A stretch of 62,752 nucleotides of DNA, the filler included, from Asterionella formosa (taxonomy: Eukaryota): NCBI GenBank assembly GCA_002256025.1. It is 16 parts of 16 records of this genome, joined end to end, with 100 filler letters (N's around TTAATTAATTAA, not from the genome) between each part and the next. Parts side by side here need not be neighbours in the genome. Positions count along the whole stretch, not along the records: positions 12,551 to 43,949 come from NKIB01000693.1; 15 more parts are not named here. One strand, given 5' to 3'. Below the pieces are notes generated by a model, which ran no database searches, was not told the origin of the DNA, and saw only the letters and a program-made list of their open reading frames with translations. The position numbers were made by a program, and so were the translations under genes. This document shows positions 26,790-51,310 of this stretch, one piece after another; positions within the stretch are counted from its first letter, which is position 1; each line of letters opens with the position of its first letter.

Positions 26790-27200
26790 ATGGTAACTGC
26801 TGTTGATCCCTCCTTGCTGCTGTTAGAGATAAAAATGGTGTTTTTGTTGATCAATTTAATTACATAACATGATAAATTTATAAAATTAGCGTTTCTTAAT
26901 GCTGTATCTGCAGCAATACACACATATACATATTTTGAAGCAACAAAAAATGTGTTGCTGGAAGCAACAAAAANNNNNNNNNNNNNNNNNNNNNNNNNNN
27001 NNNNNNNNNNNNNNNNNNNNNNNNNNNNNNNNNNNNNNNNNNNNNNNNNNNNNNNNNNNNNNNNNNNNNNNNNNNNNNNNNNNNNNTGAAGCAACAAAAA
27101 ATGTGTTGCTGGAAGCAACAAACCACCCACCCAGATGTTGGAGAAAGAAAAAATTGTGCTGAGCAACACTTTTAAACTTTTGTATCTCTGTTAAGACCTG
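26790..27200 (-). mobile_element. Second, inverted end of the CAGG-TIR family, with a 24-bp subterminal tandem repeat
   Basis: Ends TTTTGTATCTCTGTTAAGACCTG at 27200 and is homologous in reverse complement to 21408-21670. The scaffold gap at 26974-27086 lies within GAAGCAACAAAAAATGTGTTGCTG repeats. Confidence 0.75.
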
Positions 27201-27289
27201 CCCTCACAGGTATTGAAATCACTGATAGGTTAAAAAACATACGTGCTAGTTAGAAATGTATGGAACCCTTTTATATTATAGTGGCATTA

Positions 27290-28321
27290 TTATTCCTCTT
27301 TGTCGAAAACCTTGACATCCCATACCAACCCAGCAATCTCAAGGGGCTTAATAAATCCCCAATAAGCCACATCCCACCAGCATCGCTTGGCCAAAGTACT
27401 ATGATCATGATGGTCAGCATGGTTTTCTTCTTGCACAATTGCACCAAAAAGGGGATAGAGCAGATCAAGGAACCAAAAAGGTGGATAGTACAAATTTGGT
27501 TTTGCCCGCGAATTAACTGCCTTGCATTTTTTCGGTAGATTAGGAGGGTGATTGCATACATTGAACCATAAGGTTATAGTCTGACAAATCCAAGAGGATG
27601 TATAGGACACAAACAGGCCTTCACGCCCAAAGACAACATAGGCCAATGTCATTTCAATCAAGGAGACTAGAAAAGACCAAGTGTCCAGAATTCTCATGTA
27701 TTTGTCTTCCATATGCTTGGGTGCGAATTCTTCTTCGACCGTATTGTGAGTCATGAAAAAGGCAAATGCATTCTCTGTTCCATCGATGCTGCATGAGTGA
27801 GGATCGCGAGGACCATCGCAAAACTTATGGTGCATCCGGTGCTGCGAGGCCCACCAAATTGGTCCTCCCTGACTAGCTGAGGACGCGATAAACCCCATTG
27901 CGAAGCGTGTGCAAGGACCGCACTTAAATGCCGCGTGCGCTGAATAGCGATGCAAGCATGCCGACATGGGAACCGCAACTTTGTAAATTGCAATCACAAG
28001 TACAGCCATTGCCAGGAACAAGTGATGCTTCATTGAGGCAGCGAGCATCATGGACGTCATGTAAATGGGTACCACAGCAACACAAAAGAGAGTTCGCATT
28101 TGAAATACCGTAACAGCGAGAGTAATGTTCACCAAGATCGCAAGAAGAAAAAGACGAAGAAATTCAGGTTCCAATTTCATGGCGAGAACCACGAGCGGTA
28201 CGGTGATGTTGATACCCATTCCGACTTCGTTCACGTGCATGCCTCCGCGGCTGTACCACGGTTTGTTCGGTGCATCATCATCTGGAGAGCTAGACGTAGT
28301 CGTGGAGGGTGTTGTTGACAT
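27290..28321 (-). CDS. Membrane-bound fatty acid desaturase (delta-9/ADS-like family)
   Basis: 343 aa with three His boxes (HRYSAH, HRMHH followed by DPHS, and HADHH), a QGGPIWW motif, C-terminal WWDVAY and several transmembrane segments. Confidence 0.88.
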   Translation of the reverse strand: MSTTPSTTTSSSPDDDAPNKPWYSRGGMHVNEVGMGINITVPLVVLAMKLEPEFLRLFLLAILVNITLAVTVFQMRTLFCVAVVPIYMTSMMLAASMKHHLFLAMAVLVIAIYKVAVPMSACLHRYSAHAAFKCGPCTRFAMGFIASSASQGGPIWWASQHRMHHKFCDGPRDPHSCSIDGTENAFAFFMTHNTVEEEFAPKHMEDKYMRILDTWSFLVSLIEMTLAYVVFGREGLFVSYTSSWICQTITLWFNVCNHPPNLPKKCKAVNSRAKPNLYYPPFWFLDLLYPLFGAIVQEENHADHHDHSTLAKRCWWDVAYWGFIKPLEIAGLVWDVKVFDKEE

Positions 28322-29653
28322 GGGGCTGTTGCTGAGTACTGATAAGTATAGATTTGATTTGATTCGATTCCGAGAATCTATCTGATTCTGACTAGACGAA
28401 TACGCTGAGAAGTGTGCACTTTCGCAAATAACTTGTAACAGGGTCAGACCAGTTAAGTGACCAATTGATGTAGAATACTGGGCAAGGAAGGCGGCTCGTT
28501 AATGCTTTCTTGCAGCTGTAATCGCTTATGTGTCCTCAAGTGCCAAAGGTTGTTAAGGATGAAATTTGAATTGAGACAGCTGTGGTGAGTTTCGCTCTGG
28601 TGCATCCTGGTTCGCTCTCGGTCGTGTGTACTGGTACAAATCCGATCCGAAGGAAATGTACGTTAAATTCCTCAGGTCCGGTAATACAATACCAGCACCT
28701 GGTACCAGGAGAACCTGTTATTACGCCGTACCTAGCAATGGTAACCCGGGAGCAGGTACAACTATTAACAACCTCCATAGTGAGGAAGCCCCTGGTACCA
28801 GGTACCTTGTAACTGTTCTGCGTGTACCCCCCCTTCAGTACAGCAAAGCAAAGTACATGGAGTAAATAGAACAATTAGTGAGGTGTTCGCTCACTATCAT
28901 TATGCTTAGACTACCGTTACCGGTACTCCTACCAATGACGGATTCCTCGACGCCTCATCTTTCGTGCTCAGAACGGCAGAATTCTGTGAGCAGCCAGCCG
29001 GGGAGCGACATCAGCAGAAGCCGCAAGCATCACCAAAAGGATGCACTCCCACCAGGAAGGTCACGTTATGCGCGCTTTTGCCCGCACATTTTTTGTTTCG
29101 ACTCCCTCCGCCCTGCCGGGCGAGATAGGCTGGCTTTCAATTCCAAACTTTTAAATTTTTTATTATCAATATACCGGCACTTACCTACTATGCCGTTAAA
29201 TTGTAATTCACTGATTCCATGTCCACCTCTTTAAATCCAAATCGTGTTCACACACACCTACCTACCCTTTAAGGTGTTTAATTTGCTTGAAGACGGTTTG
29301 TGATGCTGGTTTAGGAATTTTAAGCAAGTTCTATGTGCAATAGATGCAGTCATGTGATATAATACCAGTATTTGGCGGCATACACATGATTATCTTGATG
29401 ACCGACAGACAGGAATGTTCTGCGGCGTATCACAGCCAACCATAAATTACTTCCTTCGCCGTCTTTGCAGACTTACTTAAAGCAAACTTACACTACCAGT
29501 ATGCTCCATCATCATCACGAAAAACCATGATGGGCTTTCTTCGCTCGGTTTAGGTACCAGGTACCAAGTACAGCAAATGATGATGCAAAAGTAATGCACT
29601 CAACTACCGGTACACAACAACAGCAAGTACCGGTACTTCAATACAAACAAGGA

Positions 29654-31246
29654 ATGGCCACCAAGGAAGAGAAGAGACTCGGAGGAATAGCCTGGGCTGG
29701 TTCGCTGGTAGGGTCCAAGAACCCAAATAATCTCGGATATCGATACTCGCACGAGCACAAGCGCTACAAGAAGACTGGTGATGATGAGACCAACACGGAG
29801 ATTCCAAGCAACATGGTGGTTCTCTTGCAGAACCGCGAAGGCGAAGCGCTTGGGGAACAACTAGATTTGCCAACGAATAGCAGCGTTGATGACCTGAGTG
29901 CCCTAGTTCACTCATTGAAGGACGAGAGTGATGACAAAAGAATTCCTTACTCATTTTATGCCAAAGTTACACGGAACGGAGTTGAAGACGACATTGAAGT
30001 TACCACTACGATCCTTGATCTACTGAAAGATAACAACATATCCACAGAGCAAGTATTGAAGTTGACTTATCAGCCTCTTGCCGTCTTCAGAGTAAGACCA
30101 GTCACCAGATGCACAGATACCATGCCCGGTCACACTGAGGCCATTCTGCATGTTTCATATTCTCCCGACGGAAGTTATCTTGCCAGTGGAGGAGGAGATA
30201 CAACTGTTCGTTTCTGGGACGTTAATACATCTCTTCCAAAATTTACTTGTGCTGGGCACAAGAATCATGTTCTCTGCACCGCGTGGTCTCCTGATGGAAC
30301 CAAATTTGTCAGCGGAGACAAAAACGGTGTTATCATCCTTTGGAACCCGGTCACGGGAAAGGCTATAGGATCACCAAAAAAGGCACATCCAAAATGGATA
30401 ACATCCTTTGCCTGGGAACCTCTTCATGCAAACCCTTCGGGAGAACGACTCGCCACATCCTCGAAGGATAGCACGGTCAAGATCTGGAATACTCGCACAC
30501 AAATGGCGCTCGTCACCCTTAGCGGACATCTGGACAGTGTCGAATGCGTCAAGTGGGGAGGACAAGGTCTTTTGTATACCGCCAGTCGAGATCGAACCAT
30601 CAAGGTATGGACTGCCGATGGAGTCGATCTCGGTAAGCTCGTTAGAACACTCACTGGACATGCCCACCGGATAAATACACTTGCCATTTCCTGTGATTAT
30701 GTTACAAGAACGGGTCCTTATGATCACAGGGGAAAAGTCTATCAGCAAATCGAAGACAAACAGGAAGCTGCAAAGCAGAAGTACGAAGACATGATGGGGG
30801 GAGAACCGGAACGACTTGTGAGCGGTTCGGATGACTTCACCTTGTTCTTGTGGCACCCTAAGGTCGACAAGCATCCCGTCAAGCGAATGACAGGTCATCA
30901 ACAAATTGTGAACCACTTGCAGTTTTCTCCAGATGGAAGATACTTGGCTTCGGCTAGTTTTGACAAGAAAGTGAAGCTATGGAATGGAAAGTCTGGTGAT
31001 TTCATAAGTACTATGACGGGTCATGTTGGTGCTGTATATCAAGTGGCTTGGAGTCCAGATTCAAGATTCTTAGTCAGCGCATCAAAAGATTCAACAGCCA
31101 AGCTTTGGGAAATACCCTCAGGAAAACGAGCAAGAGAAACTTTGCCTGGTCATGCCGATGAAGTGTATGCCTTGGACTGGGCACCAAATGGAGCAAGTCT
31201 TGCCACGGGTAGTAAGGATCGAACAATCAAAATTTGGAAGAATTAG
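29654..31246 (+). CDS. NLE1: Notchless homolog / Rsa4 ribosome assembly factor (NLE domain + WD40 repeats)
   Basis: STEQVLKLTYQPLAVFRVRPVTRC...GHTEAIL, LVSGSDDFTLFLW, LPGHADEVYALDW. The start is probably 29654 (MATKEE), although the ORF opens at 29594. Confidence 0.95.
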   Translation: MATKEEKRLGGIAWAGSLVGSKNPNNLGYRYSHEHKRYKKTGDDETNTEIPSNMVVLLQNREGEALGEQLDLPTNSSVDDLSALVHSLKDESDDKRIPYSFYAKVTRNGVEDDIEVTTTILDLLKDNNISTEQVLKLTYQPLAVFRVRPVTRCTDTMPGHTEAILHVSYSPDGSYLASGGGDTTVRFWDVNTSLPKFTCAGHKNHVLCTAWSPDGTKFVSGDKNGVIILWNPVTGKAIGSPKKAHPKWITSFAWEPLHANPSGERLATSSKDSTVKIWNTRTQMALVTLSGHLDSVECVKWGGQGLLYTASRDRTIKVWTADGVDLGKLVRTLTGHAHRINTLAISCDYVTRTGPYDHRGKVYQQIEDKQEAAKQKYEDMMGGEPERLVSGSDDFTLFLWHPKVDKHPVKRMTGHQQIVNHLQFSPDGRYLASASFDKKVKLWNGKSGDFISTMTGHVGAVYQVAWSPDSRFLVSASKDSTAKLWEIPSGKRARETLPGHADEVYALDWAPNGASLATGSKDRTIKIWKN

Positions 31247-31330
31247 TTGTCCATAGTCTCTGTTCTGTTAAGTTTACAAGCAATCTGAACCTTATGTTAA
31301 CCCTATATCTTGCTGTCATGTAATTGGCCC

Positions 31331-34300
31331 TTATGAAATGAAACTGCTTTCACTCAATGATTCGACCGAAACACTACTGTCGTTTTCACCTTCATCGTCT
31401 TCAAGCCAATTTGGTAGGGTCAATGTGGTGCCGAGCTCGTGTGCCCTGAGTAGCATTTGTCTGTGTACCCCCACGAGGGCAGTCCCTGTCTTCCGAGTCC
31501 TTCGATGCCACTTGCCGCAGTGATGAACGCTTGCTACAGGCGTCTTCTTCGGTCGCTTCCCCTTGAAATTCAGAATAAGGGAGCGCACTTGAGAATCTGA
31601 AGTAGATGGATCGACAAGTTTGGCGCCCACAATTTTTGGTTTGATTTTACCTCGTATTGGAAGATGGACTTGAGTATTCAATAGGTTGTGCTCATCCTCA
31701 ACCTTGTCATCCATAGACCCTGTCAGGGAATCCACAATTGACTGAAGATTCTTAGCACGCTCACGAAATTCTGAATCAGCATCTAGTCCATCCTGAACAG
31801 TGCTACGGAACCTTTCCTGCAAACGTTGAAACCCTTCTTCTAAAAGCGAAACCTGTTGCTTTGTTTCAGCATTCTGTTTTGACAACAATCTGTTCACAAC
31901 GTGAAGCTGTGAAACAAACAAGATAGATGAGAAACCAATTGTTAAACGATAAAAAGAGAACAATGCACGTCGACGAACAAACCTCGCGTAGTTTCCAAGC
32001 AGCCGCTTTTGCGTTATGCATCAAGCGGTCCCTCTCCTTAGCCAATGCAATGGCCTCTTGAGCAAGCTTTTTCCTCTGCAGATCGCCAACACGGTTGCAC
32101 ATGGTATCCATCAAGAGCTTTTGCTCGTTGAGAGATACTTGTAAATCAACACATTTGTTGGCCAAATTTTTGAGATCCCTCCGTAGCTCCTGTTCTCGTC
32201 TTGTATACCGAGTGTTGGAAGCATGTGGTTCGTACTTTTCCTGAATTGTCTCGTCTTTCTTGTTTTGCCAAGGCATTGCTAAACCGAATACTGAGGGGTC
32301 ACCGCTTTGTGAAGCACCTCCTCCTAGGGTGCTCCGGGAGGCTATCGACTGGTCATCAAAGCCACCGGTCCGATGTGGCCTTGCTGTGGCGGCACGTCGT
32401 AACCAGCGGTTGCTACCGCCATCATCGATTCCGTCTTCTAATCCGGCAAGCTCGTCGACTTCTACATCATCCTCTTCAATGGCGGCCCCGGATATTATAA
32501 GACCTGCATCTTCAAGGTAGTCGAAGAACTCTCCTTCCACTGTATCTAAGTTAACTTCGTCACTTTCGATCAAACCTGCATCAATCATGAGAGAGTCAAG
32601 GTCAACCAACCCTGATAAATCAGGTGCACCAGCTATAGTTGAAGTGATCTCAGGGACAGTGATTGGCCTATCCTTGTCGGTATCCTTTCGTAACTTCCAG
32701 CAAAGAGTGCGCATATACCGAAGAAAACATATGGCTTCTCGACACCGGTTTTCGACCACAATCAGTTTGTGCTCTAACTCCGAATGCTTGAGTTCTTTCT
32801 CGCGATTTTCGGTCTGAGCACGGCAAAGTTCTTCTTCCCTTTTTCGCTTCTCTTGGACCAAGAGCTCATTCTGTCGACGCAGGACAACCGATTCACTCTG
32901 AATATCAGTCAACAGACTTTCAGCACGATCGTGTGCCCTAATAACCTCGACTAATTTGTCTGAGGGCATTCGTTTTGCAAGTTCAATAGATAGTGCACGC
33001 CACTTGGGAAGATTTTGAAGCTGTCTTTCATCCTCGCCCATTACAAGAGCCTTTCGGCAGGGATTATGCACAGATTCCTCTTCATCCGCAATCGCTTGGA
33101 TTTTTCGCCACATCGAAATCGAAACGCTCTGCTTGAAAGTTCCATCTCGTTTACTTTCTTGCACTAGGTCTTTCGCAAACTCCTGAACCAAGCTCGAGAG
33201 TTCTCCGAATTTGATCTCAGTTTGTAGCAGCCATTTCCGGTAATCTTCTATTCCAGCATCTTTGTTCATTCTAGGTTTGTTGGTAACACGTCTCACCCGT
33301 TGTCCAAGGCGAATGGAGTTGATCGTTTCCGTTATGTTGTAGGAGCTCGGGGAAGCCGTGATGAAGAAAGTGGTCCTACAATTCCCGCCAAAAGCATCTT
33401 TCAAAATGCTCGTTAACTTGGCCTCTCTATAAGGCACGTACGTATGTCCTTCCGTCAAGCATTTAATAACGTTTCCAAGTGCAGAGAACGATTTATGTAT
33501 GATCTTCGTCTCTTGTACACTTTGCACTTTTGCCTTGGAAGCAACTTCGAAACCAGCCAACTCAGCAAGCTGAAGGTACGATCGACGGACAGCTCCAGAG
33601 CGAATGTGCCGCTGCTCAATATGTAACATGAAGATCGCATGAGATCTGTTTGGATCCATGCTTAGATCATTTCCAATTAATTTTCGACAAGCAGTGCCGC
33701 GTCGGATCAATTGTATGATGTCATCTTCGTTGAAACAGAACGCTTCTACCGCTCCTTCCAAGGCGATTCCAGACGTCATATCAGTAACCAGCAATGTTTT
33801 GTCTAATTTCGGATCAAGTAGGTCAAATATTTTTTCCAAAAAAATTGCAACATATGTGCAGGACAATCGAAATTCAATGTATTCAGGATACTCTTTCATT
33901 CCATGAAACAAATCGTTGATCATTCGCGGAAGAATACCAGCATCTTCTTCTCTTGGCGTTGCAGTAGTTGATATTGAATCCTCGTCACTTGATCCTTCAC
34001 CACGGTCGTCAGCTAGCTCAGGCAACTTCCCTGTCAAGGTATGTGTCTTACCGCTACCACTCAATCCATATGCCAACACAGAACAATTGATTCCTTGAAG
34101 GAGACTGTCAACAAGCGAGGAACCTACTGTTTCATACACATCCTGTTGCGAAGAATCAACATTGAATACGTGATCAAAACTGAAGTCGTATTCGCCATCG
34201 AGTGGCGAATCAACAGTAAACTGCCCATCCCCTTCATGAGCTTCAATGCAACTACGACTCCGCCGGTTCCTTTCGAGTTTGGTCATTGGCCGGAGACGAA

Positions 34301-37169
34301 GGCAAACCTTTATTGGATCCTGGTCAATTTCTTCCGCTGGTTCCTCCCAAGGATCGTTTTCTCCTTTGATGATGTCAACATCAAAATTCCTTCCAATCAT
34401 ACTCGTCATGGCACTTTCACTCATTTCAGTCGTCACAGAGGTTGTACTTGTTCTTCGAGGCTTGCTTGAATCACTTGTTTTAGCGATATCAGTAACGGAG
34501 GCTGCAGCAGCAATTTTGCTTCGTAGTTCAAGAATTTCAATCTCAGCTTTCGCAAGATCTTCATCACGATCCACCGATTCTCGAGCAAGTCTTTCATTTT
34601 CCTGCTTCAACGCTTCCATTTCCTCTAGGAGTCGATCGATTTCAATCTCATCTGTCGTCCGGCTTCGCTGGTCATGGTCCGGCCCTGTCAAAATTCCCAT
34701 TTTTTGAAATTGTCCTGTAGACACCACTTCGGTCTTTTTATCAATATTATTATCCATGGGTCTGCCATTTCCCATACTACCAGGATCTGAATGCTTTTCT
34801 AAATGGGCATTCAGTGAGCTCCACTTCTTCTTGCTTTGTTGTCCATTCTCCGGAAGGCCATGATCTGAGATGCTAGCTGATGGGAGTTCTTCGGCCTCTT
34901 TCTGCGCTGCCAATAGCGACAAATGACCATCGCATTTCGTAATATTCAATTCCCTAGTAACAGCGTTAAGCTCCCTTTTCATTTCCTCTTCAGTTATGGA
35001 CTTTTGCCCTGTTGCATGAAGTTCTTCGTCTGTCACATCCAATGCGGTCTTCATTTTATCGGAAGCACTAACCAGTAACGTTGAAAGTTGGGCTAAATCC
35101 TTGTCAGTGTCGTGATCATCATTTCTTGAAACCATTTTTCCTTTGAAATTATTAAGCAGCTCACCAGTGTCATCATGTTCTGTGTATGAAGGTCGGATGT
35201 TTGTCCCCGACCCAGTATCTGTCATCCCGTCAAAAGTTTGATTTACGTACTGAAATGTAGATGCCACCGTTTCTGAGACATGACAGGACGATAATGGAAC
35301 GCTTCCCCCTTCGGACAATTTTCGCTGTCTATGTCCCTCCAGATTTTCCTTTGGCAATGGATTATTTCTTCTTAAGCCCTCTATTGCTTGTCCTACAAGG
35401 TCCGCTTCCTCAACCGTTTCTGATATCAGCGGCACTTCGAATCCTGGAATCGCTGAAAAACCAATTCCCTCGTTGTGCGCGTCCATCAGGACAACATTAC
35501 TGCAGGCATTGTTTTCTGTTGATTTTCCCAACAGATTTTCTTTAAAATCATGAATCCCACTTTTACTACCACCAGATATCTGCGGAGTTTTTTCAGATTC
35601 TATGGATTTCTCAGTCACCGGAGATCTTGACCCCGGAGTGAATGACGAGCCCCTTCTCCTTCCCACCCCACTCGTGGTATCGCGACTACTGTCATCTTTG
35701 CTTTCCATACGCTGTCCTGATACGTAAGTTCCAAACCGAATAGCAGATAAAGTTTCGTTTACATGCCGAGAGAGTGGATTTGCGGTGACTATCACGGATA
35801 CTCCAGCCGCTCGTCCTAGGGCTACTTGTAACAATCTGGTTAGTGCTGACTCTGCATAGGGTGGAGAGGACGATCGGTCATTCAGTGCAAGAGCCCTTAA
35901 GCACTTCCTCAATGCCCCCAGTGATCGTCTGACTGCCTTGGATTCATTTATTAATAAACTATCAGCGTCCGAAGGAGGCCGATGAACCAACGACGAATTT
36001 GCTAAATCCACCAAGAATAAGGACGACGTCGTTCGTTTTCCTCGTGACCGGCTATATCTTTCCAACTTCAAAACAACCACAGAGTGAGAACGTGAGCTGT
36101 GGGAGTGTTTTCTTTCTAGGCGCTCAGCTCGATTTGACATTCCAGTCTGGAAATAGTCTATGACTTCCGATTCTTTATTGCACATCTTTTCCACTATTTG
36201 GTCAACAGCGAGTTCCTGATCACCACCGACATCGTCCACAGCCTGTCCCAACAGATCAATTACGTGCTCATTTGCTACTTCAAGGAATGAAAATCGAATG
36301 CTAGGCTCTTCCTTTTTGTTCAGCGCGTTCAAGGTTTTCCTAATCCTTCTGATTCTTTCAAATACATCCTGAACAACTCGGTGAGTGATGCCGGCATTTT
36401 CGTCCAATTCAAATAAGGGACCCACTTCCACTGCAGCTGGCGCGTATGTGCCAGAAGAAAACGCCTTGTGTCGGCCTTTGGCAGTTATGACTTGACCGGG
36501 AAGTTGAGTTGCAGCGACATCGCGATTGCCTCCATCCCCTTTATATCGACTGACCCCGGAACTACCAATAGAGCTCATGTCATCATCGTTATCGACATCT
36601 TCTTCCTCTTTCGTCGACGGCCCATTCATAGTAAACGACTTCCCGCTTCCTTGCTCTCCGTACGCGAGGATACAACAATTCCTCCCAGACAAAAAATCAG
36701 ATACCAGAGCAGCCACTGACTCCTTGTAGACGCTGGTTTGTGGTGATTTATCGTCAAAAACCTAAGCATACGCACAGACAGTTAGTGCAATGATTACATG
36801 CAGTACGAGATGAAAGATAATAGGTGAAACAAACCAAACTGGAGCCAAAAGGAGCGGTCAAACGTCCACCATGGTCATCGTGACCCTTCCAGCGTGTCCA
36901 CAAATGACGCAGGATGCTTTGGATTGAATAAAAATGGTACACTCAAAGGCGCAGGGGCAATAATGGGTGTCCGATTCGACCGACATTATTCCAAATATTT
37001 ATGTACGCACCCTATCGAAATTGAAATGTTTGGTGGCCCCTTCATTTCTGACTGAAACTCTTGCTTTGTCTTGATTGACCTTAACACATCCGTATCGTTC
37101 TTCCTTCTGTTCCTCATTGTTCATAGGGCGAAGCCGAAACGTCACCCGCACATTGTTTGTTTTCAACAT
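31331..37169 (-). CDS. Kinesin-1-like protein with two tandem motor domains (~1837 aa, 3 exons)
   Basis: Exons 37169-37011, 36761-31983 and 31906-31331, joined by phase-0 GT-AG introns. Motor 1: VRVTFRLRP, FNFDR|VF, GEQGSGKS, SSRSH, LVDLAN. Motor 2: IKVCLRLRP, FSFDHVF, GLSGSGKT, PNRSH, LAELAGFE, VPYREAKLT. A coiled-coil stalk follows. Confidence 0.9.
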
Positions 37170-38039
37170 CGTGTGGGGATTCTTGCATTATGTACAGTAG
37201 TAGATTTGCTTAATTTCTTCTTCCATCGAGAGTTGGTCTTTTATCAATACATTTAGCGGTATATACCGGTATTACGGGCGGAATATAATTTTTACATATT
37301 ATGTTCCGTTAAAAACGCCTCGGTCTATGCAGTCTACCAGTACCAGGTACCAGGTACTCCGTACAAGCTGGTAGTACCTGGAGAAGGTCTGGTAAAACAC
37401 TTTTTTACTTACAAAAATGTTCAGCTAAATATCTCGATTACCGGACCTTCGCGTAACGGTAGCTACCGGTAGTCGTGTACCTGTTGTAAATGTCCCTGTA
37501 TGTTATTTCTACGAAGAACTTTCAGTCCTACGAGTCGTATCCAGTCAAACTACCGGTAGTATGCATAAAATGAAGGGTTCTGCGTGCGAACACACATTTT
37601 GCCTCATGGAAGTCACAGTCAGTTGCACTTTAGCTACTGCTGAACGAAACCATGCAAATTTTAACCCAAGACTTGATGTGCATGACAAAATACACAACAT
37701 GGGCAGCAGATGTACAAGCTGGATTTAAATGCCCTGGCAGTTCCTACACATTTTGCATTATTGTATGCAAAAACTTCGTTTCCTCCCAATTTTGAAGATG
37801 CTGATTCTAGACCTCTAAGATGAACCAGCTCCTGTTTTATCCAGGATGTGGAGTGCTAATGATTAAGGTTAGGATAAAGCTATGGTTGAGGTACTTGAGT
37901 TCTGCATGAATCTGTAGAAAGCACAGGATAGCATGAAAATCTAAATCAACAACTTGCTTTGATGACCTACTAGATCTCCAATGCCTTGGCTGGAAGAAAC
38001 TATGCAGAGGAGGAAATAGCAATTAATTTCCCACCATAA

Positions 38040-38250
38040 AACATGACCAAATAATTCACCATTGACAACACAAAATAGGCATAAGTTTGTTGTTGTTTTG
38101 GAATTTGGGTACTAGTCAAGAGGGCCATTGCTGGGGGAACACATATCTTGCTTAAATTCAAGGAAGCCATTGATGTCCTGCAGTTTCTCCATTCACCATT
38201 TTTAGATTGGTTTCTACTTGATCACAGTCGTGGTCACTCCAAGCAATTAA
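38040..38250 (+). pseudogene. Relic of a DDE transposase (Tc1/mariner-IS630-like)
   Basis: Frameshifted remnant FVVVLEFG-SQEGH-WGNTYL-EAIDVLQFLH-WFLLDHSRGHSKQ, resembling the EGYW...LFDHSxGH segment of such transposases. Confidence 0.45.
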
Positions 38251-39804
38251 CAGTCAAACTCAACCAGCCTCAAATGAAATAAATTGAGACAGTATCATCA
38301 TTGTACTAGTATTTCTGAATCCTTGTGATGAGTGGTCTGCTTTATTTGCAATGTACACATTGAGGACTATTGGCAGAAAGTGAGTCCTAGTTGATGTGGT
38401 GTGACTGCTGATTATTGCATGCAACGACGGCCACCAGGCCTCGAGTAAGCCCGCCCCTATTTCTGAAAAGAGTGAGGAGATTGGGTGTCCCCTGCCTCCA
38501 TGCACCCTGCCGAAACTGGCAGCACTCATCTTATTTGAACTACTATCATAAAGTTTCCATCATGCTTGAATTGCTATGGTTTCCTCACGCACTGAACTGT
38601 CGGAGGCCAAGACAATTTTACCCCATTTCAATGGTTTTTCTCCAGGGTGGAATCCATCCGTCAAGTCATTTTTGCTAGCGGTCGACATGAGAATGACTTG
38701 AGAGGTTGAAAAATAGAAAGATCAGTTAATAAAAATCATGCAAGAAGGTGTAAATATGCCTTTCACTTGCTTTCTTATCATCATACTGCTAGGTCAAAAA
38801 AAGAGACTTTGTTGATTGCTGCATTTTTTGACTCTCTGTATATTGGTATCATTTTATTATTCTCTTCCCTTACCACAGATTTGCGAGTGAAATCCATATG
38901 GTGCTGTTGTAAGGTGCATAGTGGCATCTCTGCGCCTGCTTTTCCTAGCTAGCAGCTGCCATTGTTTGTAGTCCATCATCAGGGTTGAGGATGCCAGTAA
39001 CAAGGATCATGTACCAATCAACCATCGCATGTGGTGTTCACGCTTTGAATTGTATGGCAGAAATTTGATGCAGATTTCAGCTTTTCTGAGTAAAGTCCAT
39101 AGGGTACTGTTGCAAAGGTCCATAGTACCTCTGCAATTACTAATAAAAGCTAGTTGCAGCCATTATTATTTCTAGTGTATCATCAGAGTTGATGATCACA
39201 CCATGTGCTTTCGCTTTTAGGATTGCGAGTCGATAAAATACCCTCATAAACTAGTTCAGACATTCGATTTGTTTCATCTAAACAGGTCAGTTGTAGTTAA
39301 TGATAAAAATCAATCATTTCCTTCTTGAGATAAAAAATAGTCTTCATCACCTAACAGGTGACATCATCTCGCACATTTTTCCATTCTTTTGAATAGACAT
39401 TAGATGAATTCTATCAAATGTTGGGCTAGTTTAGTAGCAGCCATTGTAGTAGTAGAAGTTGTGGTGACTGGTGACTGCATGTGATGGTTAATCATTGTTC
39501 TTCCTAGCTACTTTAGTAGTCTTCCAGTTGGAGTATGGATGTGAAAAATTCATGTGCAACGTTATAATGCTTATCTGTTTCATCATCATTTACAGTATCA
39601 ATCCACGTTTCTTAGTATAAAATCAGTTATAATGCACACCTATGTCATACCATACAAATTGTCAAGTATTCTCATGCCTGAGGTAACCACAAAACAATGG
39701 AACTTGGCCTGACGATAACAACAGAATAGAAATGAATCATACCATATTGAAGTTTTTTATGCATTAAATTACTTTCTTATACATTGTTGATTGCTTTGCA
39801 AATA

Positions 39805-41399
39805 TTATGCGGCAGATAATTTCTTGAGCATGAATATGCTGGAAAGTGAGTCCTGGACAGCAGCATCTGGAGTTGATGCTCCCGATGTTACACCCATGAC
39901 AACATCCTTGGACAAATCTCGGATAAAACTTTCGGTGATAATTTCACCGTCCACTGTTCGGTGAGTAATGGTATTGTCGGCTCCAATGCAATCAGCTCTG
40001 TTTATATGGAATGCTCTGATACCAGCATGCACAGGAATCTCCAACAAATGAGCGGTGTTGGACGAATCCCAGCCACCTACAACAAGAATGAAATCCAATC
40101 CAAGTTCATCCTTATTCTCCACCAATTCGTGTACAGCGTCTTGTCGTTCCTGTGGTCAAGTAATTAGTGTTGGTTCTCATAATGCCGTCGCACAATAGAC
40201 TAAGAAATTCCAGCTAACTCACCTGAGTGGCATCGCAAATGGTATCAAATTCCATGTAATGCTGCTTGACATCAACTGGTCCAAATTTCTTCATCATGGT
40301 CTTTTGAAACAATTGTCCAATTGCACGGGTTTCTTTGCGGTACATCGTAGTTTGGTTTGCCAAACCAACATTTGCAAGCATGGTATCTGGATCGAATCCC
40401 TTGCTAACTGCGTATTTGAAGTACTCCAAAAAAGCAGCCTTATCTCCGCCGTTGATGATGTAATCAGCAACCATCTCAGCCTCTTCCATGTTCTTGACAC
40501 AAATGTAGTCTTCGCAAAATGAAAGGGTTGCTACTGTTTCTTCGTGTCCATACTTTCCATGAATGATGGATGTAAGGCCCTTCTTTTGGTGGGTATCGAC
40601 AGTATTCCAAACTTTGCTTACCCAAGGGCAGGTAGTGTCGACAACTTCAACATTCTACACCATGGTGAGATATGAAACTATGGATTTGAAAGCAGGAGCT
40701 CCGGAGTATGAAAAAACTCACCTTTTTGTCAAGCATGTCCATTTCTTCAAACGAAGCTCCAAATGCAGGCAAAATGACGACATCACCTTCTCCAATCGTG
40801 TCGAAATTTTTCTTGCCTTCTCCAACCTTTTCGATAAATTTGACATTCATGTTGGCCAAATTATCATTGACTTCTGGATTGTGAATTAGTTCGTTCGTAA
40901 TGTGAATCGTCTTGCCAGGAAAGTGCGCCACTGCCTCGTAGGCCAACGCAATCGATCGTTCGACGCCCCAGCAGAATCCAAAGTCCTGTGTAGTTGAAAT
41001 GGAAATTCTTAGTGACAGTTGGCATGGGCGACCCCAGCAGAGTAAATAACCATTGCCAGGACTCAACATTTCAGGTCATTAACGTACCTTGGCAAGGTGA
41101 ACCTTAACCCCGTCCCTTTCAAGAACATACTGACCCGTCTTCATGTCGTTTACTAATCCCGACATGAATTGCTCTTTCATGACTGTCTCGACGCCTTCTC
41201 GGACTTCTTTAAATCCTTTGCGATGGAATTGCTTGTTCTGCATGAATCGCAAGCGTTCTGCTTTCTTTGTACTTTTCCCGTCTTCCTCCGTGGTGGTCGA
41301 TTGGCTAACAGCCGTTACAAAGGCTCGTCGATTCACAGTAGGGGCAAAAGCGGACGCCGAAGCGGCCAACATGACAATAGCGGCACTCGTAAACTTCAT
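39805..41399 (-). CDS. ispH: 4-hydroxy-3-methylbut-2-enyl diphosphate reductase (HDR/LytB), plastid-targeted, 4 exons, 450 aa
   Basis: Exons 41399-41088, 40985-40722, 40654-40223 and 40149-39805. Motifs [43 protein letters not shown] and [10 protein letters not shown]-terminus [20 protein letters not shown]. Confidence 0.96.
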
Positions 41400-42488
41400 G
41401 GCTTGGTACGTTGCTTTTACTTTGATGATAAGAGCAAATCTTGCGTTTCGATCGAATCTGGCTTTTAAGTGGATTTTTCCGGTATGTTGGTTGCGTTCCC
41501 CCGACCGTGATGTACGTACCGGTACCTGGTAGTGCGTTCGGATCAGCTGGCTGAGGATGGTGAATACAGAAACGCACACCGCGATATTACGTGGGACTAC
41601 ATAGACTACTGTACATTCATATATGCTCTCAACTTGATCCCTTCAATGGCTTCCACTCGGCGAAAGACGCATCTCGTTAGGCACTTCAACAGGCATACGC
41701 CGGACAGTCATTCGCTCTCCTTTCGAAGCAAGTCAGGTACTCCTGGTATATAGAGCAGACTACACGGTCGTACCGGTATGATTCTACAGCAGGGGGTGAC
41801 GAGGTCTTCTTTATCACTCCTGTCAATTTAACGGTTCTCGACGGACCTACACCCCTACTTTGGACCAAGACTGGTGTACCGGTATGTCGGCAGGCATGCA
41901 TACATATGGAGAGGGTGTCTAATGGTGAAAGCTCCGTTGAGCGTTATACATTTTTATTTAAGGGATGAAAAGTATGTGTTTGATTAGTCTGACTCAATAA
42001 GTTTTTAACCCTACCTCGAGCTAGGGGTTCAAATACAGGAACCTTCAGCGTCAGTATGGCGACCGTCCTTACGAATCCCTGCTATCACCGGTATCATGCA
42101 AAAACTGTTGGGAAGCAAAAAAATGCATGATAAGATTCGGGATTAATATTGCTTGCACCTTGGCGAAAAGTAATTGCGGGCAGTCTGAAGTGAGCAAAAG
42201 CTCTATGAATGTGCCGCTGACTGCAATAAACTCTCGCTCTCTTGCTCATACTAGTACTATAGGTATTTGCAATCTTTATTACTGAAAAATGAGTTGGGAG
42301 GAGAAAACAAGGAGTGAGGGGAAGAGGAAGGGATCAGTGGATTGAATAACGTTCAACGCAGAAGAATACCCGGTAGTCAACGAGTACACACAGATATATA
42401 TATATATACTTAATCGTGGTTGTGACACAATACATAGGATCATGAGCGAGTGGAATAAATGTTTGCGCTTGTCGTGTTCCTTTCTATT

Positions 42489-43949: not shown

Positions 43950-44049
43950 NNNNNNNNNNNNNNNNNNNNNNNNNNNNNNNNNNNNNNNNNNNNTTAATTA
44001 ATTAANNNNNNNNNNNNNNNNNNNNNNNNNNNNNNNNNNNNNNNNNNNN

Positions 44050-46039
44050 AGGGCGATATAAGGTTCGCTCCCTGTCTCTTGCAATCATCAAACCGCACTT
44101 TTTGGAGCCCATTCATTCAGCAACAATTCTCGGGGGGAACGACGGGCATGATAGGATCAGAAGAAGGTAAAGTATCATCAAAAGGAGGATGTAAAATGGG
44201 ATCAGAAAGAGTTGAAGTAGGATCAGAGGAAGGTAAAGTAGGAATAGAAGGAACCTCTTTTGGATCAATCTTGCAGATATGCCGCATTGTCTTTGGAATG
44301 CTTCTTCGTTTTTCTGATTGACCTCCAAGCGCTTGAAATGAATGTTGAGCTCCTTCTCTAGCAGCCGTCGTGAGGAGGCAACGTTCCGGTTATTAATTTT
44401 ATCATGATCCTACTCCTGCTCCAATTGAAGTTTGAGCCTCTCCACCGCCTTGACAATTAAGGAGGCTTCCTCCTGCTCAGCATCATTTAGTTTCTGGCAT
44501 TTCGTCGCTCCTTGGTCTTTCCAACTGTAGCGAGTATTTTTATGTGTCCAATGGATGATACGAAATGATACGTGTGTCTTGGCTGAGAACTACAATACAA
44601 TAGAAAGTATTCCATGAGATCAGTCAGGATATGTACCAACATCAGGTTCGATGACCACAATCACGATCACGAACGTTTGCTTGAACCACCATTGGGACAG
44701 TATGGCGTTGCTTGAGGTGGTTGGGAAGAAGGAGAAAGGCGACAGGCCGATGTGAAGGCCTTTGATTCCAACAAGAGCAATCACGACAATGGTAATTTTG
44801 AGTGTTTATGATTTCCATTGTAACAATTACAAACAATATACCCCCGAGACTATCATTTTTTCATCGAAATTATAGATCAAATCATGACATCAGGTTATTT
44901 GACATGTACCGTATTTTAGTCTTTAATCTTCAGGACCATAAGGAGGCAATGAAATTTCCTGAATACCGAAATACAACGATTTTGCCTTAATAGCTTCTCA
45001 ATCTTCAATCGTCGTATTTCAGGTCCATAAGCTTCGGCCTAGTTAACTAACAGATGCTATAACTTGAAAACGAAGACATAGATTTACCTGAAAGGAGTTC
45101 GACTTATTGAAAAATAGCATATATAAAGTGATCAATATATATACTCAGCAACGTAGATGCTAATAGGCATTGGATCGAAGTATCGTAGTGAAAGAATTTA
45201 GGGGACTGTCGGTAGATAGATTTTACTCTACCGGTATTGGTATTTCCGGACAACATAAAAGAGTACCGGTAGGTAAAGATTGGCTAGATTGCCAATCAAT
45301 TGATATCTACTGATCATCACGCTGGTGGTCATACACAGCTAGTCTGTATTTAGGCTATTATTACACAGATGCATGATTTCATGCTAATGTAGCTACATTA
45401 TTTTTTTTCACTATTTTTCATTAGCTGTATATTGATTGTTTTCACTTCATTTCGGGTATATGTATATTAAACATATACACTCCTACCAATAATAGACTTG
45501 GTCCTTTATTTACTGTAATATAGTGCTATAGTATGTGTACTCGTGGTGACTCAATATTAAGTACCAGGTACTCTAAATACATAAAATGGTCTATTCCCTC
45601 TTACACGTACCCTGGTAACCAGTCGATAGGAGCAAATGGGCGCCGGTACTAGGTACTGGCACCTGGTACCAGAACCGGTATTGTCGCTAGCTTTGTGCAA
45701 TGTACTCTAGTACTAGTAAAGTACTAGTGCTAGCTTCGACTACGGGTTTAACTGGGAGTTTAATTTTTTACGACTACATTCCCGGTATACCTATAGTAGT
45801 CCCGAAATTCTACCAAGGTAGCTAGTATTTTCTCGTAGGCCTCGGTAGGCTTCTACTGAGGACAGAAAATACCTCCAAGGTACCAATATTGGCAAATATT
45901 TACGTGGTCTAGCATGAGGTATGTCTGTACCAGCTCAAAATTCTACCTTGGAGAATTTTTGGTAGATTTTTTTTCCTCGTTTGGGAAGCATATTCTAGCT
46001 AACTCATCATAATAACGAGGTTAGGGTTAACAGTGATAT
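44050..46039 (-). repeat. 1.99-kb multicopy sequence, copy 2
   Basis: Reverse complement of 10461-12450 with a few SNPs. Confidence 0.95.
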
Positions 46040-46139
46040 NNNNNNNNNNNNNNNNNNNNNNNNNNNNNNNNNNNNNNNNNNNNTTAATTAATTAANNNNN
46101 NNNNNNNNNNNNNNNNNNNNNNNNNNNNNNNNNNNNNNN

Positions 46140-48132
46140 AGGGCGATATAAGGTTCGCTCCCTGTCTCTTGCAATCATCAAACCGCACTTTTTGGAGCCC
46201 ATTCATTCAGCAACAATTCTCGGGGGGAACGACGGGCATGATAGGATCAGAAGAAGGTAAAGTATCATCAAAAGGAGGATGTAAAATGGGATCAGAAAGA
46301 GTTGAAGTAGGATCAGAGGAAGGTAAAGTAGGAATAGAAGGAACCTCTTTTGGATCAATCTTGCAGATATGCCGCATTGTCTTTGGAATGCTTCTTCGTT
46401 TTTCTGATTGACCTCCAAGCGCTTGAAATGAATGTTGAGCTCCTTCTCTAGCAGCCGTCGTGAGGAGGCAACGTTCCGGTTATTAATTTTATTATGATCC
46501 TACTCCTGCTCCAATTGAAGTTTGAGCCTCTCCACCGCCTTGACAATTAAGGAGGCTTCCTCCTGCTCAGCATCATTTAGTTTCTGGCATTTCGTCGCTC
46601 CTTGGTCTTTCCAACTGTAGCGAGTATTTTTATGTGTCCAATGGATGATACGAAATGATACGTGTGTCTTGGCTGAGAACTACAATACAATAGAAGGTAT
46701 TCCATGAGATCAGTCAGGATACGTACCAACATCAGGTTCGATGACCACAATCACGATCACGAACGTTTGCTTGAACCACCATTGGGACAGTATGGCGTTG
46801 CTTGAGGTGGTTGGGAAGAAGGAGAAAGGCGACAGGCCAATGTGAAGGCCTTTGATTCCAACAAGAGCAATCACGACAATGGTAATTTTGAGTGTTTATG
46901 ATTTCCATTGTAACAATTACAAACAATATACCCCCGAGACTATCATTTTTTCATCGAAATTATAGATCAAATCATGACATCAGGTTATTTGACATGTACC
47001 GTATTTTAGTCTTTAATCTTCAGGACCATAAGGAGGCAATGAAATTTCCTGAATACCGAAATACAACGATTTTGCCTTAATAGCTTCTCAATCTTCAATC
47101 GTCGTATTTCAGGTCTATAAGCTTCGGCCTAGTTAACTAACAGATGCTAGTATAACTTGAAAACGAAGACATAGATTTACCTGAAAGGAGTTCGACTTAT
47201 TGAAAAATAGCATATATATAGTGATCAATGTATATACTCAGCAACATAGATGCTAATAGACATTGGATCGAAGTATCGTAGTGAAAGAATTTAGGGGACT
47301 GTCGGTAGATAGATTTTACTCTACCGGTATTGGTATTTCCGGACAACATAAAAGAGTACCGGTAGGTAAAGATTGGCTAGATTGCCAATCAATTGATATC
47401 TACTGATCATCACGCTGGTGGTCATACACAGCTAGTCTGTATTTAGGCTATTATTACACAGATGCATGATTTCATACTAATGTAGCTACATTATTTTTTT
47501 TCACTATTTTTCATCAGCTATATATTGATTGTTTTCACTTCATTTCGGGTATATGTATATCAGACATATACACTCCTACCAATAATAGACTTGGTCCTTT
47601 ATTTACTGTAATATAGTGCTATGTTATGTGTACTCGTGGTGACTCAATATTAAGTACCAGGTACTCTAAATACATAAAATGGTCTATTCCCTCTTACACG
47701 TACCCTGGTAACCAGTCGATAGGAGCAAATGGGCGCCGGTACTAGGTACTGGCACCTGGTACCAGAACCGGTATTGTCGCTAGCTTTGTGCAATGTACTC
47801 TAGTACTAGTAAAGTACTAGTGCTAGCTTCGACTACGGGTTTAACTGGGAGTTTAATTTTTTACGACTACGTTCCCGGTATACCTATGGTAGTCCCGAAA
47901 TTCTACCAAGGTAGCTAGTATTTTCTCGTAGGCCTCGGTAGGCTTCTACTGAGGACAGAAAATACCTCCAAGGTACCAATATTGGCAAATATTTACGTGG
48001 TCTAGCATGAGGTATGTCTGTACCAGCTCAAAATTCTACCTTGGAGAATTTTTGGTAGATTTTTTTTCCTCGTTTGGGAAGCATATTCTAGCTAACTCAT
48101 CATAATAACGAGGTTAGGGTTAACAGTGATAT
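46140..48132 (-). repeat. 1.99-kb multicopy sequence, copy 3 (most diverged)
   Basis: Same sequence with additional SNPs and a 3-bp insertion near 47149. Confidence 0.95.
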
Positions 48133-48232
48133 NNNNNNNNNNNNNNNNNNNNNNNNNNNNNNNNNNNNNNNNNNNNTTAATTAATTAANNNNNNNNNNNN
48201 NNNNNNNNNNNNNNNNNNNNNNNNNNNNNNNN

Positions 48233-50222
48233 AGGGCGATATAAGGTTCGCTCCCTGTCTCTTGCAATCATCAAACCGCACTTTTTGGAGCCCATTCATT
48301 CAGCAACAATTCTCGGGGGGAACGACGGGCATGATAGGATCAGAAGAAGGTAAAGTATCATCAAAAGGAGGATGTAAAATGGGATCAGAAAGAGTTGAAG
48401 TAGGATCAGAGGAAGGTAAAGTAGGAATAGAAGGAACCTCTTTTGGATCAATCTTGCAGATATGCCGCATTGTCTTTGGAATGCTTCTTCGTTTTTCTGA
48501 TTGACCTCCAAGCGCTTGAAATGAATGTTGAGCTCCTTCTCTAGCAGCCGTCGTGAGGAGGCAACGTTCCGGTTATTAATTTTATCATGATCCTACTCCT
48601 GCTCCAATTAAAGTTTGAGCCTCTCCACCGCCTTGACAATTAAGGAGGCTTCCTCCTGCTCAGCATCATTTAGTTTCTGGCATTTCGTCGCTCCTTGGTC
48701 TTTCCAACTGTAGCGAGTATTTTTATGTGTCCAATGGATGATACGAAATGATACGTGTGTCTTGGCTGAGAACTACAATACAATAGAAAGTATTCCATGA
48801 GATCAGTCAGGATATGTACCAACATCAGGTTCGATGACCACAATCACGATCACGAACGTTTGCTTGAACCACCATTGGGACAGTATGGCGTTGCTTGAGG
48901 TGGTTGGGAAGAAGGAGAAAGGCGACAGGCCGATGTGAAGGCCTTTGATTCCAACAAGAGCAATCACGACAATGGTAATTTTGAGTGTTTATGATTTCCA
49001 TTGTAACAATTACAAACAATATACCCCCGAGACTATCATTTTTTCATCGAAATTATAGATCAAATCATGACATCAGGTTATTTGACATGTACCGTATTTT
49101 AGTCTTTAATCTTCAGGACCATAAGGAGGCAATGAAATTTCCTGAATACCGAAATACAACGATTTTGCCTTAATAGCTTCTCAATCTTCAATCGTCGTAT
49201 TTCAGGTCCATAAGCTTCGGCCTAGTTAACTAACAGATGCTATAACTTGAAAACGAAAACATAGATTTACCTGAAAGGAGTTCGACTTATTGAAAAATAG
49301 CATATATAAAGTGATCAATATATATACTCAGCAACGTAGATGCTAATAGGCATTGGATCGAAGTATCGTAGTGAAAGAATTTAGGGGACTGTTGGTAGAT
49401 AGATTTTACTCTATTGGTATTGGTATTTCCGGACAACATAAAAGAGTACCGGTAGGTAAAGATTGGCTAGATTGCCAATCAATTGATATCTACTGATCAT
49501 CACGCTGGTGGTCATACACAGCTAGTCTGTATTTAGGCTATTATTACACAGATGCATGATTTCATGCTAATGTAGCTACATTATTTTTTTTCACTATTTT
49601 TCATTAGCTGTATATTGATTGTTTTCACTTCATTTCGGGTATATGTATATTAGACATATACACTCCTACCAATAATAGACTTGGTCCTTTATTTACTGTA
49701 ATATAGTGCTATAGTATGTGTACTCGTGGTGACTCAATATTAAGTACCAGGTACTCTAAATACATAAAATGGTCTATTCCCTCTTACACGTACCCTGGTA
49801 ACCAGTCGATAGGAGCAAATGGGCGCCGGTACTAGGTACTGGCACCTGGTACCAGAACCGGTATTGTCGCTAGCTTTGTGCACTGTACTCTAGTACTAGT
49901 AAAGTACTAGTGCTAGCTTTGACTACGGGTTTAACTGGGAGTTTAATTTTTTACGACTACATTCCCGGTATACCTATAGTAGTCCCGAAATTCTACCAAG
50001 GTAGCTAGTATTTTCTCGTAGGCCTCGGTAGGCTTCTACTGAGGACAGAAAATACCTCCAAGGTACCAATATTGGCAAATATTTACGTGGTCTAGCATGA
50101 GGTATGTCTGTACCAGCTCAAAATTCTACCTTGGAGAATTTTTGGTAGATTTTTTTTCCTCGTTTGGGAAGCATATTCTAGCTAACTCATCATAATAACG
50201 AGGTTAGGGTTAACAGTGATAT
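48233..50222 (-). repeat. 1.99-kb multicopy sequence, copy 4
   Basis: Nearly identical to the reverse complement of 10461-12450. Confidence 0.95.
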
Positions 50223-50322
50223 NNNNNNNNNNNNNNNNNNNNNNNNNNNNNNNNNNNNNNNNNNNNTTAATTAATTAANNNNNNNNNNNNNNNNNNNNNN
50301 NNNNNNNNNNNNNNNNNNNNNN

Positions 50323-51310
50323 GTTATTACCATGGTCAGAAGTCGCAGTAGATTGAATTGGTCCATGGAAGATAACAGTGGCAACTCAAGTAATTGAATT
50401 TCGTGCTCTAACTTGTATTGATACAGTCACCAATTTGGCAGAAATTTCACGTATCACCAATAAAACATCAGAATATATTGCAATGAAATTTGAAAATGAT
50501 TGGTTAGCCAGATATCCCCGTCCAGAACGTTGTATACATGACAATGGAGGTGAATTTACTGGTGCTCCTTTCTTACACATGTTGGTGTTGAATGGAATTA
50601 AAGATGTGACTACTACAGTCAAGAATACACAAGCAAATGCTATCTGTGAATGTTTACATCAATCTATCAGTAATAGTCTACGAGTTATGTTAAAGGCTCA
50701 TCCTCCAATGAATGAATTTCAAGCCCAAAATATTGTGGATACGTGTTTTGCAACTGCATCATATGCAGCTCGAGCTACTATTCATAGTATATTACGTATT
50801 TCACCAGGAGCATGGGTTTTTGAACGTGATATGATATTAAATATTCCTTTGATTACAGATTTACAATTAATATATCAACGTCGACAAGTGATAATTGACG
50901 AACGTTTACATCGTGCTAATTTCCGTCGTCGATCTTATGATTACAAAGTGGGTGACGAGATTTTAATATTATTGGATAATCCTACTACTTTGGATGATCG
51001 TGGACAAGGTCCTTATACTATTATTCAAGTACATGCCAATGGTACAGTTACTTTTCAACGCACTATGCACATTACAGAACGAATTAATATTCGTCGTATC
51101 AATCCTTTTCATAGGTAAAAGGTTTTCTCTCAAGTGTGGGAGAGTGAGCAATCCTGCACATCGATACAGATGTATATAGGGTTAGGGAAATATCAAATAT
51201 ATCGGAATTCAATAATGAGAGAACTCGACTAACACCCATTCTATACTTTGATGTCAGTTCAGGAAATGAGTTGTACATAAGGATTAATTAATAAGCTCAT
51301 ATATTCAACA
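50323..51310 (+). mobile_element. Ty3/Gypsy LTR retrotransposon 3' end: integrase (premature stop) plus possible PPT and LTR
   Basis: LPWSEVAVD*IGPW...ALTCIDTVTNLAE...WLARYPRP...HDNGGEF...QANAICE...GPYTI...NIRRINPF, ending at 51118. Purine tract GGGAGAG followed by TG (51145)...TCAACA (51310) as a tentative LTR. Confidence 0.85.

Follow-up and report, generated by a model that had tools for sequence, protein, structure and literature searches.

The stretch analysed here (62,752 nucleotides (nt) including filler, hereafter the window) derives from assembly GCA_002256025.1 of Asterionella formosa, most likely an araphid diatom given its closeness to Fragilaria, and carries on contig NKIB01000693.1 a minus-strand gene of three exons that encodes a kinesin of 1837 amino acids (aa) with two motor domains (Table 1). 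It is a real, expressed two-motor derivative of kinesin-1 that is conserved across centric and araphid diatoms. A genome-wide search with PF00225 recovered both motors, as the preliminary description of the locus had expected, motor 2 with 262 bits and motor 1 with 142 + 54 bits, all above the cut-off. The two domains are just 28% identical (93/332), so the tandem is not a collapsed repeat. Their P-loops lie at aa 88 (GEQGSGKS, motor 1) and aa 952 (GLSGSGKT, motor 2), and the altered switch motifs reported earlier, DLANS, PNRSH and ELAGFE, are all present, at aa 305, 1090 and 1120, respectively. The database protein P0004 is likewise 1837 aa long and matches this one at all but two positions. 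The single spliced frame through both motors, and the location of most of motor 1 together with motor 2 in one uninterrupted 4.8-kb exon, likewise stand as first described: spliced RNA contigs cross both motors in agreement with the three-exon model, and exon 2 is free of stop codons over 4779 nt.

Transcription was assessed in four of the 24 listed runs (X9, X10, X11 and X13), which come from three studies, or two if X11 is left out, its sample being a possible source of this DNA; X13 was guessed to be RNA, and its contigs are spliced. Both splice joints occur in all four runs, and in all four exon 2 is covered without insertion or deletion, which counts against the mis-assembly between the motors that the preliminary description had considered. 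Record 12 of X13 (5306 nt) runs from 31650 to 37280 across both motors with both introns removed, record 7 of X11 from 32292 to 37277 across both motors with intron 1 removed, and X9 and X10 each have a single contig that contains the entire exon 2 and lacks intron 2; contigs retaining intron 1 are found at low depth in X9 and X10. The RNA contigs do not show transcript ends and also extend into a convergent WD40 gene, so that contig continuity alone is no proof of one transcript. Five coding variants were seen, two of them silent and three changing residues, those lying outside the motors. An extra 89-nt intron, present only in X13 and situated right after the IAK-like motif, shifts the frame and would remove the basic tail.

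A motor profile search turned up 13 distinct diatom-type sequences in which a single chain or locus carries both motors, and this recurrence argues that the tandem is no mis-assembly. Besides the window species, the set comprises P0005, P0111, P0007 (Fragilaria crotonensis KAI2506838.1), P0008, P0127 (an Odontella aurita MMETSP transcript), P0152, P0161, P0298 (Cyclotella cryptica KAL3797532.1), L038 and L041/L042 (one gene, with introns), as well as P0128 and P0172, in which motor 1 is incomplete; the diatom-type label was assigned from the tree, except for the three species just named. The same architecture was thus recovered from other diatoms and from MMETSP, where the preliminary description had proposed to look for it. 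Among 27 metagenome loci the tandem occurs in three (L038, and L041 and L042, which are the same gene), the rest having one motor. Against its universality, P0009-P0014, P0125, P0126, P0129, P0130, P0131 and P0133 begin near or inside motor 2, and all of these resemble gene calls made exon by exon; within the Fragilaria cluster, for example, the end of motor 1 and the linker fall in P0118, whereas P0115 opens at motor 2. No named raphid pennate appeared among the homolog-search matches (one search being word-limited, with 17 matches) or among the 20 representatives, which is not evidence of absence; a 2010 kinesin catalogue (PMC2867816) has 15 Phaeodactylum rows, none of them kinesin-1 and one a 'divergent' entry.

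Other multi-motor models were set apart from this group. P0134, P0164 and P0173 were excluded as tandems, their sequences being near-identical repeat models, and P0184 was excluded on its domain map alone. Paulinella micropora g52421 (P0153) is modelled with two canonical motors (72% identical, catalytic motifs intact), two MyTH4 domains, PDZ and MYND, Achlya hypogyna OQR84285 (P0162) with two KIF15-like motors (62% identical), and EukProt transcript P0283 with two unrelated motors (32% identical), read as kinesin-13-like and kinesin-14-like. All three fall outside the diatom tandem clade in the FastTree analysis; the Paulinella model is a candidate for an independent two-motor gene, and the models of P0162 and P0283 could be fusions or chimeras. 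The architecture is widespread in diatoms, which the preliminary description had named as a limit on its novelty, yet no description of a natural two-motor kinesin was found in searches of open PMC and bioRxiv papers, although subscription papers or other supplements could mention one; the single paper returned on a tandem kinesin concerns an engineered protein. In the catalogue table of PMC2867816, 'KISc-KISc' is given in 11 rows (rice, poplar, sea urchin and fugu), in no case across the full set of three architecture columns, and in 0/24 Thalassiosira and 0/15 Phaeodactylum rows. A search of the ESM Atlas returned generic kinesin clusters only.

A kinesin-1 origin of motor 2, the neck and the tail is supported by PDB matches and the tree and, for the tail that the preliminary description had likened to kinesin-1, by profile matches that are weak outside diatoms. 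In sequence searches of the PDB, kinesin-1 accounts for the top 24 matches of motor 2 (best E 1e-62 vs 6e-50 for the first other family) and for the top 18 of motor 1, there by a slim margin (3e-30 vs 7e-28). The same genome encodes a single-motor paralog on contig C7139 (L035 969-6862, minus strand), with canonical motifs (SSRSH, DLAGSE, NKSL); it is 43% identical to motor 2, and its stalk and tail are related to those of the tandem. This paralog also bears a very long C-terminal extension, acidic then lysine-rich. Trees were inferred with FastTree (86 rows) and IQ-TREE (42 of those rows, 333 columns), the kinesin-1 reference rows being mostly matches to the motor-2 profile that we labelled kinesin-1 ourselves. 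In both, motor 1, motor 2 and the single-motor diatom paralogs form one clade (100/98 with IQ-TREE) within kinesin-1 (96/97), in which the paralogs are the sister clade of motor 2; the motor 2 clade has a support of 100/99, and motor 1, with its long branches, is weakly supported (65/26). A clade of the two motors without the paralogs is absent from the best tree and is not rejected (p value of the approximately unbiased test, p-AU, 0.062), so that more than one order of duplications is compatible with the data. Independently of the tree, an intron position directly after the FD[x] motif is shared by motor 1 here, the C7139 paralog and both L042 motors. Motor 1 of L042 retains a neck that by eye resembles the paralog's, and araphid motor 1 has none. 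The simplest history is that the motor of a diatom kinesin-1 was duplicated and set N-terminally before the centric/araphid split. In Thalassiosira pseudonana, two kinesin-1 genes have been counted (PMC1434745), and gene 32564 was left outside the named families (PMC2867816), in a group 'X11' that, as read here, is the single-motor paralog. Some single-motor paralogs (P0151, P0176 and P0142) have eroded switch motifs too, so degeneration took place more than once in diatom kinesin-1. Two more kinesin motors, strongly degenerate, lie elsewhere in the genome, at C5149:8437-9639 and C285:26163-27074 (L022/L037 and L023), with SSKGH/DMAGGD and GPRGH/ELCNGH.

AlphaFold2, run on aa 54-1225 with a 20-sequence alignment, modelled most blocks of both motor cores at a predicted local distance difference test score (pLDDT) of about 77-93, and both modelled heads have kinesin-type secondary structure; the best Foldseek match was Neurospora kinesin-1 1GOJ (E 6.6e-34, root-mean-square deviation 2.9 A, 360 columns, one head). 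The linker is predicted to be disordered save for helices at aa 606-676 and 756-807, both conserved across the family. With a predicted template modelling score of 0.42, the single-chain model is uninformative on head-head docking, and a model of motor 2, stalk and tail of P0009 (8-sequence alignment) reached a mean pLDDT of 40.9, with long helices at low confidence. A neck linker and neck coil of the kinesin-1 type follow motor 2, and not araphid motor 1. The tail profile matched single-motor paralogs strongly and five non-diatom-type kinesins weakly (E 8e-6 to 8e-4; 273 proteins). Of the kinesin-1-like tail with an IAK-type motif announced in the preliminary description, the three quoted tail motifs are present but the lysine of 'IAK' is not (VHLPIRG). 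Since the single-motor diatom forms also have the motif without lysine, its loss is not special to the tandem.

Table 1. Features of the two-motor kinesin gene of A. formosa (positions in the window)
Feature	Position	Strand	Evidence
Exon 1 (aa 1-53; start of motor 1, RLRP nucleotide motif)	37011..37169	-	splice joint in 4/4 runs
Intron 1 (249 nt, GT..AG, phase 0, after FDR)	36762..37010	-	RNA contigs, gene model
Exon 2 (aa 54-1646; 4779 nt, stop-free; rest of motor 1, linker, motor 2, stalk)	31983..36761	-	single RNA contigs in X9, X10, X13
Intron 2 (76 nt, GT..AG)	31907..31982	-	RNA contigs, gene model
Exon 3 (aa 1647-1837 and stop; end of C-terminal coil, tail)	31331..31906	-	RNA contigs, gene model
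Motor 1 (aa 3-400; P-loop GEQGSGKS kept, switch II DLANS, Arg at N255 site, Ala at R278/K281 sites, no neck linker)	35721..37163	-	
Motor-1-specific motif DDxSSxGSxG[VI]S, within the long post-P-loop insert; araphids to Cyclotella	36549..36584	-	
Inter-motor linker, conserved helical block (aa 606-676)	34893..35105	-	
Predicted long helix, probable coiled coil, directly before motor 2 (aa 756-807)	34500..34655	-	
Motor 2 (about aa 870-1212; P-loop GLSGSGKT, switch I DPNRSH, switch II ELAGFE, His at N255 site; R278/K281/R321 sites kept)	33285..34313	-	
Kinesin-1-like neck linker and neck coil (aa 1213-1250)	33171..33284	-	alignment to human kinesin-1
Stalk (aa 1251-1570), common to single-motor diatom paralogs; acidic stretch at end	32211..33170	-	
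C-terminal coil (aa 1571-1710), weak similarity to protist kinesin-1 tails	31715..32210	-	
IAK-like motif VHLPIRG, without lysine	31649..31669	-	
Basic tail (80 aa: 18 K/R vs 3 D/E), candidate ATP-independent microtubule site	31415..31654	-	
Alternative 89-nt GT..AG intron; other frame replaces basic tail (1784-aa isoform)	31562..31650	-	joint in 1/4 runs (X13)

Residues are given in human numbering, SSRSH 201-205, DLAGSE 231-236, K91, T92, Y138 and N255 being taken from PMC4383081 and Q86, E136, N198, R278, K281 and R321 numbered by counting from these anchors. All counts omit gap rows; in the comparison set of 34 kinesins, G234, E136, D231 and R278 are found in 34 and E236, N255 and R203 in 33. 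R278, K281 and R321 are microtubule-binding residues. Motor 1 departs widely from this pattern at the catalytic sites, with E236 in 0/11, G234 in 2/11 and R203 in 4/11 sequences, and N255 remains in 1/11, being replaced by Arg or Lys in six (Arg in the window species). Residues on the microtubule side are also largely lost (R278 kept in 1/11, K281 in 3/11, R321 in 1/11), and in the window species most of loop 8 is missing and the basic residues of loop 12 are lost. The P-loop Lys survives in 9/11 sequences (Arg in two). Both P-loops, described earlier as intact, do retain GxxxxGK[ST], but the conserved Gln (Q86) is replaced in each. An active ATPase is marked by SSRSH, DLAGSE and the R203-E236 pair; switch II of motor 1 reads DLANSS, and the signature is absent. 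The N255K mutation uncouples nucleotide from microtubule binding, with tight binding in all states (PMC4383081, PMC3000839), and E236A nearly abolishes catalysis (bioRxiv 2025.06.11.659012); together with the pattern at E236, G234 and N255, these effects make it very unlikely that motor 1 would act as an ATPase motor. The domain is nevertheless constrained, because it is more conserved than the adjoining linker (264/390 positions identical to P0005 vs 40/138 in the next linker segment) and keeps the motif DDxSSxGSxG[VI]S, which is present in araphids, Odontella, Cyclotella, P0161, L038 and L042 and not recognisable in P0152. We strongly infer from these residues that motor 1 would be a folded, possibly nucleotide-binding, non-hydrolysing head.

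Motor 2 presents a different mixture. Its microtubule face is largely preserved (K281 20/20, R321 16/20, R278 12/20) and the P-loop Lys is kept in 15/19 sequences, while Q86 (0/19), E136 (0/21), S201 (1/21), N255 (3/20) and D231 (6/20) are lost nearly throughout or in the majority; R203 (11/21) and E236 (12/20) are lost in several members that are non-araphid or of unassigned species. In the window species S201, S202, D231 and N255 are changed and R203, G234 and E236 kept; as the neck linker is retained there as well, slow activity of motor 2 in this species is possible. ELAGFE and HKSF are invariant in the 8-sequence alignment A1. Degeneration is heavy in both motors of Cyclotella, P0161 and P0152.

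Given the architecture, the transcription and splicing, the conservation, the common ancestry and the residue pattern, we favour, with a probability of about 0.5, a four-headed microtubule tether or cross-linker that would be static or slowly cycling. An ancient diatom kinesin-1 duplicate would have gained a second motor domain at its N-terminus, leaving transport to the canonical single-motor paralog. Motor 2 would be the main microtubule-binding head, its coupling between microtubule binding and nucleotide turnover rewired in such a way that cycling is slow or absent. The predicted coiled-coil segments suggest that the chain may dimerise in parallel through the coil preceding motor 2, the neck and the stalk, yielding a four-headed particle with two dead motor-1 heads on flexible tethers of ~200 residues. 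The motor-2 pair would hold one microtubule, and the basic tail and the motor-1 pair would connect it with either another microtubule or a partner protein. This agrees with one part of the function proposed in the preliminary description, in that, of the roles named there, a low-ATPase scaffold or cross-linker is the one most in line with the residues observed; the active slider proposed alongside it is less supported, because motor 1 is without the catalytic Gly/Glu, the loop-12 Arg/Lys, a neck linker and, in the window species, most of loop 8. Several observations speak against the tether as we picture it. With its loop-12 basic residues and most of loop 8 lost, motor 1 of the window species may not bind microtubules at all. 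K91, R203, G234, E236 and the neck linker are all retained by motor 2 in this species and in related araphids, and motor 2 is the best-conserved part of the protein (295/350 identical to P0005), as would fit a working motor. Finally, one sub-lineage (P0282, P0136 and P0321-P0324), with 246-290 residues that include the pre-motor coil, gives no match to motor 1, through either loss of motor 1 or truncated gene calls.

The same features underlie a tentative alternative, in which motor 2 would be an active plus-end motor whose switch changes are compensated and motor 1 a passive head that regulates it or anchors a second microtubule, the dimer transporting cargo or sliding microtubules as a one-chain counterpart of Kar3 with Vik1. 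The araphid P-loop Lys, R203-E236 pair, G234, microtubule face and neck, and the invariance of ELAGFE and HKSF across A1, are in keeping with it; there is a precedent in Vik1, a motor-fold partner without an active site (PMC3544905), and engineered tandem kinesins are processive (bioRxiv 2025.06.11.659012). The engineered tandem, however, has two active heads joined by a short poly-proline linker, against ~465 mostly disordered residues here, and the nearly family-wide loss of Q86, E136, S201 and N255, with the frequent loss of R203 and E236, counts against this alternative. We regard as rather unlikely, though worth formulating, a more specific version: a diatom four-headed kinesin-1 derivative, older than the centric/pennate split, whose dead head anchors one microtubule or organelle while the rewired active head (ELAGFE, His at the N255 site) pulls another, in the service of a microtubule array peculiar to diatoms, for instance the post-mitotic system that forms the valve, or the labiate-process apparatus. 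Ideas on the cellular role are speculative: arrays of microtubules are present during valve formation and terminate near the rimoportulae (PMC3000822), and the labiate-process apparatus is tied to a post-mitotic microtubule system (PMC6124563), kinesin being unmentioned in the accessible parts of both papers.

It is improbable that both heads have left the microtubule motor role for that of a scaffold in signalling or at membranes, as in the case of KIF26A or Costal-2, with motor 1 binding proteins through its loop-5 motif. The heavy degeneration of both motors in Cyclotella, P0161 and P0152 would suit such a scaffold, as would the retention of the loop-5 motif in a motor 1 that has lost R278, K281 and R321, and KIF26A is indeed a kinesin without motor activity (PMC10585591); K281 and R321 persist in motor 2, however, and the tail is strongly basic. 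That the tandem is an artefact, whether a mis-assembly or an annotation fusing two adjacent genes, is already refuted at the DNA and RNA level, for although the assembly is redundant here (contig C5769 duplicates the region), the RNA contigs run into the neighbouring gene and some database multi-motor models (P0134, P0164, P0173) resemble repeat artefacts, two dissimilar motors share one stop-free exon, spliced contigs from three studies cross both, and the layout recurs in Fragilaria, Odontella (as a transcript) and Cyclotella.

Set beside known systems, the tandem shares with the kinesin-1 heavy chain (KIF5/KHC; Neurospora 1GOJ, human 1MKJ/3J8X) the order of neck linker, neck coil, stalk and IAK-like motif; the heavy chain has a single, N-terminal motor, whereas here there are two, the neck-bearing one is internal and preceded by a coil, the switch motifs are altered and IAK has lost its lysine. 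The single-motor diatom paralogs (C7139; P0135, P0144 and others) have the stalk, the tail and the intron position in common with the tandem and differ in their one motor and canonical SSRSH, DLAGSE and NKSL. Smy1 has degenerate switch motifs on a kept kinesin fold. KIF26A (PMC10585591) and Costal-2 (PMC2867816) likewise combine degenerate switch motifs with a retained fold, but these two and Smy1 have one head per chain. In the kinesin-14 Kar3-Vik1/Cik1, a motor is also paired with a catalytically dead motor-fold domain (PMC3544905), although the domains there sit on separate chains and belong to another family, and Vik1 is without an active site, whereas motor 1 keeps its P-loop. The bipolar kinesin-5 homotetramer resembles the putative dimer in having four heads per particle and in cross-linking microtubules (PMC2148119); its heads are four identical active ones on four chains, however, and kinesin-5 references fall outside the tandem clade. 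Engineered tandem kinesin-1 (bioRxiv 10.1101/2025.06.11.659012) has two heads placed head to tail in one chain, as here, but is artificial, with a short stiff linker and both heads active. A single motor in each chain is taken to be the rule for kinesins, and tandem-headed constructs have been engineered for studies of stepping. The diatom protein carries natural substitutions at residues whose laboratory mutants define the coupling of ATP turnover to microtubule binding, and so offers a natural case for the coupling model; a dead anchor head combined with an active rewired head, if that is what it has, would represent a motor of new design and put that model to a natural test. The protein also offers a concrete candidate molecule for the little-known microtubule systems by which diatom cell walls are shaped.

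The redundant contig C5769 (14.8 kb; L031, L032) duplicates 27088-41845 of the window, with 10000/10000 and 4754/4758 bases identical, and was rejected as a second gene copy, such near-total identity pointing to assembly redundancy. The convergent WD40 gene (29531-31246, plus strand), presumably Notchless/Rsa4-like, ends 85 nt from the kinesin stop, and the RNA contigs bridging both genes suggest that their 3' ends overlap. The other neighbours, an intron-split LytB/IspH gene (PF02401; 39805-41642, minus strand) and a weak fatty-acid desaturase match (PF00487, below cut-off; 27290-28498, minus strand), have no evident functional link to the kinesin. Outside contig NKIB01000693.1, at 1-12550 and 43950-62752, the window shows paired 44-base runs of N at regular intervals of ~2.1 kb.

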